This document shows positions 17,716 to 20,977 of a stretch of DNA of 64,000 nt, in pieces. Under the pieces are notes generated by a model, which worked only from the letters and a program-made list of their open reading frames with translations, was not told where the DNA came from and did no database searches. The position numbers and the translations under genes were made by a program. How positions within the stretch are numbered: the first letter of the stretch is position 1; each line of letters begins with the position of its first letter. Where the stretch lies: the NCBI RefSeq assembly GCF_055900595.2, contig NZ_CM148325.1; one strand, given 5' to 3'.

Positions 17716-18347
17716 AACGACGTGACACCATCGTGCGCTACACCGCGCCGGAACGTATCAACCACTGGATCACCGCCTTCTGCTTCATCCTGGCGGCGGT
17801 GAGCGGGCTGGGCTTTTTGTTCCCTTCCTTCAACTGGTTGATGCAAATCATGGGCACACCGCAGCTGGCGCGCATTCTGCACCCGTTTGTCGGCGTGGTT
17901 ATGTTTGCCTCGTTCATCATCATGTTTTTCCGTTACTGGCATCACAACCTAATCAATCGGGATGATATCTTTTGGGCGAAGAATATTCGTAAGATCGTCG
18001 TCAACGAGGAAGTAGGTGACACCGGGCGTTATAACTTCGGTCAGAAATGCGTTTTCTGGGCGGCGATTATTTTCCTGGTCCTGCTGCTGGTGAGCGGTGT
18101 GATTATCTGGCGTCCTTATTTTGCGCCTGCTTTCTCAATCCCGGTGATCCGATTCGCGTTAATGCTGCATTCATTTGCCGCAGTGGCGTTAATTGTGGTT
18201 ATCATGGTGCATATCTACGCCGCCCTTTGGGTGAAAGGCACGATTACCGCCATGGTGGAAGGATGGGTTACCAGCGCCTGGGCGAAGAAACATCACCCGC
18301 GCTGGTACCGTGAGGTCCGCAAGACAACGGAAAAGAAAGCTGAATGA
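17712..18347 (+). CDS. fdoI: Formate dehydrogenase-O cytochrome b556 subunit (211 aa)
   Basis: Four TM helices with conserved His; 4-nt overlap with fdoH. Confidence 0.9.
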
Positions 18348-19273: not shown

Positions 19274-19455
19274 TCTCTGACGTTTTCCGGGTGGCGCTGG
19301 TCGCCCGGATTACAGTTGATAGGGTGTGACGACACCATCTCTCGTATTCCGCGTTACCCATTCAAGACTGTGCTGTTAGTGCCTGTTTGGCCTCATTCTT
19401 CCCGCCAACACATCGATAAGGTTATTGGTATGTCACTGATGACAAGCGTAAGATT

Positions 19456-19554
19456 GCCTGATGCGCTGCGCTTATCAGGCCTACCAATAAACTGCAATAT
19501 GTTGAATTTGCACGACTTTGTAGGCAGGATAAGGCGTTCACGCCGCATCCGGCA
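19456..19554. repeat. REP/BIME palindromic elements
   Basis: gcctgatgcgctgcgcttatcaggcctac and tgtaggcaggataaggcgttcacgccgcatccggca. Confidence 0.7.
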
Positions 19555-19603
19555 TGAACAACTCGCACGTTGTCAGCAATCTGATTGATATCATTTTTTC
19601 CCA

Positions 19604-19822
19604 TTACCATTCCTCGCGCAGCTTACGCTGGTATTCGACACCATCTTCCTCACATCCTTGCCAGATGCCAGGAACACTGGATATTGCTGTTTGCGATTGA
19701 TTTACCTGGTATTGATCTACCGCTTCCCGTAATAGCTCCGCACGAGGAAGATTACACTGCACCTCAAGATCATCAAGTTGCTTAATCACCTCATTCGATA
19801 AATCGAGTAAAATTCTGCCCAT
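19604..19822 (-). CDS. yiiF: Ribbon-helix-helix (CopG-like) DNA-binding protein YiiF
   Basis: 72-aa product from ATG 19822 (in-frame ATGs also at 19828 and 19846); RHH signature; paralogue of yiiE. Confidence 0.7.
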
Positions 19823-20064
19823 ATCCATACCTGCCAGAGAGTTCATAAATATCTCGCCAATATCATTTTTGAATCTATAGAGAGAAAAGTACCTTTGTCG
19901 AATGCTTAAAGAAAGTGCATTTACGTATCACTTTTATTTTTGCGAGGCGTTTTCCAGATATGATGTAACAGTTGCAATTATTAGAAGTTCAAGTAAAACA
20001 ACCTTGTATTAATACCAGAATAAGGGGATCTGGTTTTTTATATTCAAGAATAAAAAATTTTTTG

Positions 20065-20283
20065 TCATTCCTTATGCTCCTTACACTGATCATCGACACC
20101 CACTGTCTCCCCCTTTTGCCTGCCTCCCTTTGCTTTACGCACCGGGAATTGCTGACGTTCCAGATATTGCTCTACCGCTTCGCGTAAAATTGCAGATCGT
20201 GAAACCTTACGCCAGCCCCTAAGCTTGTTCAGCCGTTTAATTGCCTCTTCTGATAAATGAAGAAAAACCGTATTCATCACCAT
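20065..20283 (-). CDS. yiiE: Ribbon-helix-helix (CopG-like) DNA-binding protein YiiE
   Basis: 72-aa product from ATG 20283 (ORF extends to 20310); LSEEAIKRLNKL...AILREAVEQYL RHH signature. Confidence 0.7.
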   Translation of the reverse strand: MVMNTVFLHLSEEAIKRLNKLRGWRKVSRSAILREAVEQYLERQQFPVRKAKGGRQKGETVGVDDQCKEHKE

Positions 20284-20977
20284 TACCAATACCTTACATA
20301 TATTACTCATTAATGTATGTGCGAAAATTACGCCGAAAAATCATTTAAAAAAAGCGGATTTTTGCATGCTGTTTTGTTTTTGCGAGACGTTTTCCAGAAA
20401 TAATAAGAACGTTGCAGTTGTTTCATTTGTTAATCAATAATGGTTTGGTTATCGCCCAGGATGAGATATGGGTGCTATAAATATATTATATTCAGGGATA
20501 TTTATTTTTTGATTGGGTCTTCATTTGCATAATCTGAATGGTGTACCCGAAAAACGTCAGCATCCTAACAGCACCAGGATTTAAGGTGAAATTTAACATC
20601 CATCACAGACCGGTCAATGCTGCCGCCAACCGGTCTTTACTTGCTCGTCGTTATAATTTTGTGGGTAACAGTTCGGGAAACAAGGAATTCCTTCCGGAAC
20701 ACCCCGGTATCATCCGATAGCATTGACGTCAATCATCAGCGCGACGGTGAGTTTTTTTAATCGAATCATAGGATGGTAACGTTAAGCACGATTACGGGTC
20801 ATAGTAAAACTCCTGAGCAGGCGGCACTATGCCGCTTTCACAGGAGTTCTGAATGCTGGTGCTTTCTGTATGGCATAACCATGCCCCTCGCGGCTAAGTG
20901 CCTGCACACTTCTCTCTTTGTATGTCATTTTTGCAATGCATTGGCCGAATTCTGGTAATTCAAATGAGTTTTACTCT

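Follow-up and report, generated by a model that had tools for sequence, protein, structure and literature searches.

Here we describe a short DNA element that lies upstream of each of two tandem genes, yiiF and yiiE, which encode small ribbon-helix-helix (RHH) proteins in a 64,000-nt stretch of contig NZ_CM148325.1 (RefSeq assembly GCF_055900595.2). This whole stretch, hereafter the window, is Escherichia DNA, sharing about 93% identity with typical E. coli and 99.9% with strain Z0117EC0005. The 22-nt core of the element is the conservation peak of a whole-unit duplication, and across enterobacteria it marks the upstream edge of unrelated accessory cassettes (VapBC, RelE/NadS, Hok-like, YbiA and YhcG). 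These observations are best read as a selection-maintained, cassette-associated cis element, that is, a binding site for a trans-acting factor or a recombination handle.

The two copies were delimited by a repeat search of the window and by aligning the units that contain them. They form a 51-nt direct repeat on the minus strand, with 78% identity and a spacing of 440 nt, of which the F copy (19932..19982; core 19937-19958, TCTGGAAAACGCCTCGCAAAAA, invariant) precedes yiiF and the E copy (20372..20422; core 20377-20398, TCTGGAAAACGTCTCGCAAAAA) precedes yiiE. Read on the minus strand, the core is TCTGGAAAACGYCTCGCAAAAA; it occurs exactly twice in the window, with the copies agreeing at 21 of 22 positions, and had zero occurrences in 100 shuffles when three mismatches were tolerated. 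Both 22-mers are identical in K-12. A sequence-only reading of this DNA had reported a near-identical element before each gene, and both the positions and the duplication of the upstream region are borne out. The distance of 90-110 nt from the starts that it gave holds roughly for the core, with corrected values of 91-112 nt from the start codon of yiiF (ATG 19846) and 94-115 nt from that of yiiE (ATG 20283), while the 51-nt repeats lie at 86-136 and 89-139 nt, respectively. The repeats sit within a tandem unit of about 440 bp made of the upstream region and the RHH gene. Global alignment of the two units gave 59% identity in the coding part, 60% in the start-proximal non-coding part, 95% in the core and 46% further upstream. 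Membership in a longer duplication, which the sequence-only reading had named as grounds for giving up a regulatory role, is therefore formally what we find, yet the core stands well above the rest of the unit.

The same contrast is observed directly between genera. In an alignment of the regions upstream of vapB, the orthologue of yiiF, a near-invariant block (TCTGGAAAGCGGCTCGCAAAA) stands amid otherwise scrambled sequence. Among 23 distinct vapB upstream regions the core has a mean pairwise identity of 98.7%, versus 53-54% in its flanks, and its consensus is TCTGGAAA[A/G]CG[N]CTCGCAAAA. The distance from the core to the vapB start is constant at 111-112 nt, and the VapB proteins themselves range from 52 to 76% identity to YiiF. 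Within E. coli the core is kept in 5413 of 5426 genomes, while the adjoining LexA boxes have decayed. Because it is retained across genera at an inherited locus and in nearly all of these genomes, its conservation argues for purifying selection acting in place at a vertically inherited locus.

The core is not confined to RHH genes. Scanning metagenomes with the 19-mer core as probe returned 116 stretches, 47 of which have a YiiF-like gene. In others the core stands, at the same locus, before a module of RelE (PF06296) and the helix-turn-helix (HTH) protein NadS; in some, RelE/NadS is followed by a second core and then by vapBC or yiiE; and in others again the core precedes a Hok-like type I toxin or lies beside a RelBE pair. 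Many of the remaining stretches, which have GC-rich flanks, look like chance matches. Arrays have one core ahead of every cassette (L006, L004 and E. coli). In E. hormaechei the core begins 7 nt past the fabY stop and is followed by RelE/NadS, with no hydrolase, LexA box or vapB at the locus. E. coli carries further copies between dinG and ybiA (K-12, L180; TCTGGAAAGCGGCTCGCAA, 24 nt before ybiA and 46 nt beyond the dinG LexA box), between rayT and yafL (L174; CGGGAAAGCGGCTCGCAAA, 62 nt from the rayT start, with repetitive extragenic palindromic (REP) elements after it) and, in some strains, between gltD and yhcG (L179; TGGAAAGCGCCTCGCATAA, after the gltD terminator). A scan of viral contigs (L131-L173) gave chance matches only, where TGGAAAAYGACTCGCARAA falls inside coding sequence of P2-like prophages and is unrelated to the intergenic element. 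The core sequence was not found in any paper of the literature searched. Separately, in Citrobacter and Salmonella (e.g., L010, 2296-2384) the first codons of a divergent hydrolase gene (ATGGCACTGGAAAGCGGG...) hold an inverted, exact 11-nt copy (CTGGAAAGCGG) of the left half of the core; 8-9 of these 11 positions match in other genera, and the resemblance may be a coincidence.

Where alternative cassettes occupy one locus, homology was observed to break at the core. Between VapBC-type and RelE-type loci it spans the hydrolase gene through the core and ends 0-3 nt past ...CTCGCARAA. At the dinG locus, K-12 (L180) and N3 (L177) are homologous precisely as far as ...GGCTCGCAA and become so again at the rhlE stop, so that the segment from core to rhlE is a replacement island, holding ybiA (a NADAR protein gene) in K-12 and the type III secretion system effector gene espX2 with a hypothetical gene in N3; the espX2-type allele is found in about 540 genomes, N3 among them. 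The Hok cassette is located between fdhF and yjcO, and the empty K-12 spacer has no core; therefore, the core came in with the Hok cassette. Finally, the core upstream of yiiE in E. whittamii is a hybrid (CCGGAAAGCG|TCTCGCAAAAAC) with a left half of backbone type, a right half of E-copy type and an intact backbone LexA box directly upstream, the pattern that would be expected from a core-to-core exchange removing a RelE/NadS cassette.

The gene behind the F copy can be placed through its relatives. Homologues of YiiF were found in Citrobacter, Pseudocitrobacter, Salmonella and Klebsiella, as well as in records labelled Serratia and Enterobacter. All orthologue loci fetched have the order fabY, an alpha/beta-hydrolase gene on the opposite strand, the RHH gene, a PIN toxin gene (overlapping stop/start) and fdhE, and the PIN toxin follows the RHH gene at this locus in six or more genera. 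The K. pneumoniae PIN protein of this locus corresponds to chain B of PDB 7BY2, 'Ribonuclease VapC' (E 9e-81), the only orthologue complex with a solved structure; K. pneumoniae VapBC here is the system of Kang et al. 2020, as referred to in PMC11117207. YiiF of the window is 63% identical to the VapB of 7BY2, C-terminal tail included. VapB genes lie upstream of, and overlap, their cognate vapC gene, and no PIN gene was found in the window. Instead, 19274-19603 consists of REP elements and a relic of the vapC tail. The relic (19310..19366, minus strand) holds the last ~18 codons (LEWVTRNTRDGVVTPYQL, then the stop), abuts the fdhE terminator and was identified by translation and by tblastn with C. 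freundii VapC (E 6e-5). The space of the lost vapC is taken by REP or bacterial interspersed mosaic elements (19420..19560), identified from Rfam matches to ES036 and naRNA4 (REP-derived) and by direct reading. Because the toxin is gone from the window and only these remnants are left, yiiF is, as judged from its locus and homology, the orphaned VapB antitoxin of a VapBC module minus its PIN toxin. The suggestion of orphan antitoxins with no adjacent toxin therefore holds for yiiF. A candidate vapC relic between yiiE and the F element was rejected, as tblastn gave E 0.2-1.1 only and the region fits the LexA-box backbone better.

The promoter of this module does not coincide with the core. A consensus scan placed the start-proximal promoter and likely operator of yiiF at 19847..19901 on the minus strand (TCGACA-18-TAGATT, with AAAAATGATATTGGCGAGATATTT beside the ATG), and in orthologues the counterpart of this region is a conserved block, TGATATACT..GTATAT. 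In K. pneumoniae, the transcription start site (TSS) of 'yiiF' was mapped 4 nt upstream of the start codon, behind TGATATACT (extended -10) (Kim et al. 2012, PMC3415461), and the core therefore lies ~100 nt upstream of the promoter. Between core and start codon, the module types differ in the palindrome or repeats that they carry, namely GTACGTCATTGACGTAC in RelE/NadS modules and tandem TGATATA-type repeats around the ribosome-binding region in vapB. The core is thus separate from each module's own promoter and operator beside the start codon.

The explanation that we favour, though tentatively, is that a conserved trans-acting factor binds the core and thereby provides all the cassettes with one input, a reading in which both the binding and the role of the factor are inferred. 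yiiE and yiiF are two tandemly stacked RHH-antitoxin cassettes that occupy a variable slot beside fdhE, and each cassette opens with the same portable cis element, the core, as its upstream edge. Under this model, the core would act as a high-specificity site for a factor other than YiiE or YiiF specifically, and this factor would supply a common external input ~100 bp upstream of the cassettes' own autoregulated promoters. If the core is the outermost functional part of a cassette, homology between alternative cassettes would break at its edge.

Several points weigh against this binding-site model. No binding factor for the core was identified, and the core has no obvious repeat or dyad symmetry typical of transcription-factor sites. 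Its position relative to the promoter varies, from about -100 for K. pneumoniae vapB to ~35-70 nt upstream of the predicted hok promoter hexamers, and at ybiA it lies inside the 5' untranslated region, with a TSS 34 nt upstream (2 reads only). In three contexts (espX2, rayT-yafL and the RelBE locus) no co-oriented gene follows the core. Protein sites are also seldom invariant at 19 of 19 positions, as the core is, and base pairing or recombination could be the cause instead. Moreover, the metagenome scan started from the core itself, so that loci without a core were invisible to it.

The main rival, which is rather unlikely on present evidence and is compatible with a binding site, is that the core serves as a site or short homology anchor for the gain, loss and stacking of cassettes, each incoming cassette bringing or regenerating a copy. 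The single core per cassette in arrays, the hybrid core of E. whittamii with the backbone LexA box directly upstream and the presence of the core with the Hok cassette but not at the empty site all fit such a handle, as do breakpoints at the 3' edge of the core at two loci. Others coincide with the 5' edge: in E. hormaechei and L055 the core lies 7-17 nt past the fabY stop. In Pseudocitrobacter, a derived CAGAA variant is common to both cores. However, there is no recombinase gene alongside the cassettes, and no inverted or second-end (right-end) copy was found within 4 mismatches, whereas recombination sites have two arms or an imperfect palindrome and lie at both cassette ends. Xer/dif sites fit poorly, with 8 of 11 positions matching the XerC arm and no XerD arm (compared by eye with dif, cer and psi). 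Two deletions end at the core, one in the allele of E. whittamii and E. coli 98203 and one in L092; we rejected them as signs of site-specific cleavage, since CGCAA microhomology with vapC accounts for both. Lastly, conservation at 19 of 19 positions at a syntenic, vertically inherited locus across genera favours selection in place over a passive handle. A more far-reaching form of the same idea, slightly less probable again, is that the core betrays a cassette system of Enterobacteriaceae that has yet to be described, in which a cassette-borne site of 19-27 nt is acted on by an unlinked host recombination activity. Such a system would insert, stack and swap VapBC, RelE/NadS, Hok, NADAR YbiA and YhcG nuclease genes at intergenic hot spots, though we regard this too as doubtful.

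The allele shared by E. coli 98203 (L181, 2440-2520) and E. whittamii (L003) lacks yiiF, and a vapC tail longer than that of the window (..RDFAGIAGVVxPYEL, then the stop) directly adjoins its F core; the junction is the same in both except for one base.

The sequence-only reading had itself raised the possibility of an autoregulatory RHH operator and promoter, which would be bound by YiiE and/or YiiF (VapB). We consider this improbable. The element is duplicated with each RHH gene, is kept in nearly all E. coli and lies at a fixed distance from the vapB start, and direct reading finds two loosely similar subsites, TGGAAAG and TCGCAAA, 11 bp apart, in a geometry compatible with an RHH dimer of dimers. 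RHH operators, however, are built of repeated or palindromic subsites that overlap the promoter, and the core is asymmetric, with no dyad visible on direct reading; it is the tandem TGATATA-type repeats that overlap the mapped vapB promoter, with the core ~100 nt upstream of that TSS. Such operators are also specific to the cognate antitoxin, whereas an identical core precedes RelE/NadS modules with an HTH antitoxin, including that of E. hormaechei, and the core is found before hok-like genes and before ybiA and yhcG, which are not toxin-antitoxin (TA) genes. TA operators usually co-vary with their antitoxins, and here the core is invariant while VapB drifts to 52% identity. Likewise, YiiE has TVFLHL where YiiF has RILLDL in the aligned N-terminal segment (by analogy, the putative DNA-reading beta-strand), but their cores are the same. 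Because of this mismatch and of the copies before HTH-antitoxin modules and non-TA genes, the claim of an RHH operator was not upheld.

Of similarly low probability is a role in RNA, in which the core would act inside transcripts that run from an upstream LexA-controlled promoter on into the cassette, possibly as the target of a small RNA (sRNA) or an RNA-binding protein. At the hydrolase locus in other genera and in E. whittamii, the core is preceded by an intact LexA-type box at a constant distance of 70-73 nt. At dinG-ybiA, a LexA box lies 62 nt upstream of the core and is overlapped by the predicted ybiA promoter, the ybiA TSS maps upstream of the core as noted above, and the invariance at every position would suit recognition by base pairing. 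Against this, the Hok, yhcG and rayT contexts have no LexA box, and at E. coli yiiE and yiiF the boxes have decayed while the cores have not. Neither window element has a box of the form CTGT-N8-ACAG beside it. The decayed relic of the F unit (20003..20018, minus strand; CTGGTATTAATACAAG) does not fit this pattern and aligns under the intact orthologue box CTGTATGGATATACAG, and that of the E unit (20444..20459, minus strand; CTGGGCGATAACCAAA) is assigned from its alignment position, where E. whittamii has an intact box (CTGTATGAATGTACAG). No conserved secondary structure was found either. An RNA hairpin with the core in its loop was rejected: outside the Salmonella/Citrobacter group, to which the flanking stem is limited and where the flanks are significantly complementary (z -2 to -3.6), the signal is near zero. 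The Rfam search returned REP-derived matches only, with none to the core, and no complementary sRNA was identified.

A sigma-54 (-24/-12) promoter is effectively excluded, although the core reads as TGG-N10-GCA. Its GG and GC are conserved and always stand at exactly the required distance (TGGAAAACGCCTCGCA), the variable positions fall in the would-be spacer, and a few weakly bound genuine sites resemble the core, e.g. CTGGAACGCTTTTCGCA. On a position weight matrix (PWM) derived from 135 sites that Bonocora et al. reported by ChIP-seq, however, the cores reach 5.0 and 7.2 bits, at or below almost every genuine site (lowest 6.6, median 14.4), and 221 and 88 window positions, respectively, equal or exceed them. 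Neither the main-text high-stringency tables of the ChIP-seq study nor its supplementary tables, the low-stringency list included, contain any of the five E. coli core loci, and no core locus is in the RpoN genomic SELEX (gSELEX) list. In addition, conservation at -19 and -16 has no sigma-54 reason, and no enhancer-binding protein gene is nearby. The candidate was thus rejected on its poor PWM score and on the lack of published ChIP-seq or gSELEX signal at core loci. With this PWM the top match of the window, at 16.6 bits, is IS47, a published intragenic sigma-54 site in fdoI (CTGGCGCGCATTCTGCA, 17865-17881, plus strand). As a side observation, TCGGCGTAATTTTCGCA at 20320-20336 (minus strand), between the E core and the yiiE start, scores 12.7 bits, within the range of genuine sites; its K-12 counterpart is CCGGCGTAATTTTCGCA, and the site is absent from published ChIP-seq lists.

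A functionless remnant of duplication is effectively excluded too: the element does belong to a whole-unit duplication, but the core is 95% identical against 46-60% in its surroundings between window units and 98.7% against 53% in flanks across genera, and it occurs independently at other loci.

Other candidates were rejected more simply. A small open reading frame (ORF) across the core has inconsistent frames among close relatives, with C. freundii reading MKMGKIGMGMILESGSQK and a stop, and S. enterica diarizonae and RelE-type loci shifted by +/-1. In the frame NTG GAA AGC GGC TCG CAA AAR, stops (TAA, TGA or TAG) are in excess directly after the core, in 9 of 24 sequence types, and the base before its TG varies (C, T, A, G); no consistent ORF emerged. 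Direct reading found no -10 hexamer conserved at the right spacing for a sigma-70 promoter on either strand, the SlyA consensus TTA-N6-TAA is absent from the core, and ChIP-exo tables for uncharacterised transcription factors have no peak at any core.

The locus itself carries fdoH-fdoI-fdhE on the plus strand and yiiF, then yiiE, on the minus strand. yiiF (19604..19846) encodes an 80-aa RHH protein, the orphaned VapB-type antitoxin, as given by its ORF and by the annotation of Z0117EC0005 in the NCBI Prokaryotic Genome Annotation Pipeline (PGAP). The 72-aa RHH (CopG) protein encoded by yiiE (20065..20283) is its paralogue, with 37% identity (E 1e-10); the longest yiiE ORF extends to 20310, and we use the PGAP start of 20283. 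YiiE matches Pfam RHH_1 (PF01402; E 1.6e-11, 44.2 bits against a cut-off of 20.5 bits), and so belongs to the CopG/RHH_1 family. YiiF of the window has no Pfam match at E<=0.01, and many of its orthologues carry a precomputed RHH_1 match; its ribbon-helix-helix fold follows from a match to PDB 2K5J ('yiiF', E 8.7e-45), and it also matches K. pneumoniae VapB, chain A of 7BY2/7BY3 (E 2.9e-29). The two tandem RHH paralogues first recognised from the sequence alone are therefore confirmed, one by family profile and the other by structure. Among the 115 YiiE homologues returned, most are unnamed, and all those with an organism name are Escherichia or Shigella. A scan of genome contigs for YiiE gave four loci, two in Escherichia species and two on Escherichia-like contigs under unrelated organism names, which are probably contamination. 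Among named homologues, yiiE is thus a diverged paralogue found only in Escherichia, including Shigella.

The gene next to this pair had been taken for an acquired phosphatase, which we did not confirm: the 617-aa ORF at 20978-22831 (minus strand) matched nothing in Pfam, NCBIfam or PDB. A CX5R-type motif, CKSAKDRT, is present in it; the PGAP annotation of Z0117EC0005 has, over apparently the same stretch, a 'transposase' and a partial 'hypothetical protein', and K-12 retains only the first ~25 codons (L009, ~2350-2420). The stretch at ~20440-20970 is homologous to the spacer of ~400-500 nt that follows the RelE/NadS cassette in L004 and L006. The L006 version holds a Cys-rich ORF of ~87 codons (MARNRAERRHH...CGCSCWMCG...) and that of the window looks decayed, which suggests that E. 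coli formerly had a RelE/NadS cassette upstream of yiiE. In E. coli SCAID WND1-2021 (L182, 3390-5300), yiiE and yiiF are separated by an insert of ~2 kb, which encodes a DUF6708 protein and a hypothetical protein and begins 25 nt upstream of the F core.

In the literature, yiiE and yiiF are mentioned rarely, and only in notes on expression, binding or classification. The yiiE transcript is up 2.5-fold on SlyA over-expression (PMC5797941, whose flags on yiiE we read as H-NS binding), yiiE is among the SlyA gSELEX targets (PMC6134199), and a weak RpoS gSELEX peak lies in the yiiD-yiiE spacer (PMC5493296). For yiiF, altered expression is listed for strains adapted to temperature and in a dataset on transcription termination (PMC9308461), and YiiF has been placed in the AraC family among uncharacterised transcription factors (PMC4797297).

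How TA modules move and pile up in the same intergenic slots, most of them without mobility genes, is a long-standing question, and an invariant boundary sequence of 19-22 nt, seen with several cassette types, at several loci and in many genera, offers a concrete handle on it. If the common regulatory input is true, otherwise independent TA and defence genes would be tied to one host signal. The analysis also clarifies two poorly characterised K-12 genes, with yiiF as a toxin-less VapB and yiiE as a stacked paralogue found only in Escherichia.

Among known systems, sigma-54 promoters share with the core the spacing of GG and GC, but the core scores poorly and occupancy is unreported by ChIP-seq at all five E. 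coli copies. Autoregulatory RHH operators (Arc, CopG, FitAB/VapBC) resemble the element in lying upstream of an RHH gene and being duplicated with it; they differ as antitoxin-specific repeats or palindromes that overlap the promoter, whereas the core is asymmetric, ~100 nt from the TSS and shared by unrelated modules. K. pneumoniae VapBC (7BY2/7BY3) is the closest counterpart of yiiF, with the same fabY...fdhE locus, a shared C-terminal tail and 63% identity to VapB, while the window has no PIN toxin (an 18-codon relic and REPs in its place) and a second toxin-less paralogue, yiiE, stacked upstream. For the arrangement as a whole, comparison can be made with the arrays of orphan toxin/immunity cassettes at contact-dependent inhibition (CDI) and Rhs loci, and with the Xer-flanked 'dif modules' with TA genes on Acinetobacter plasmids. 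Here, a single asymmetric sequence of 19-22 nt lies at one end only, and no Xer-type arms (judged by eye), coding-sequence homology handle or associated recombinase were found. These systems have in common with the cassettes described here the stacking of small accessory or TA cassettes, each bounded by a short conserved sequence at which exchange occurs.

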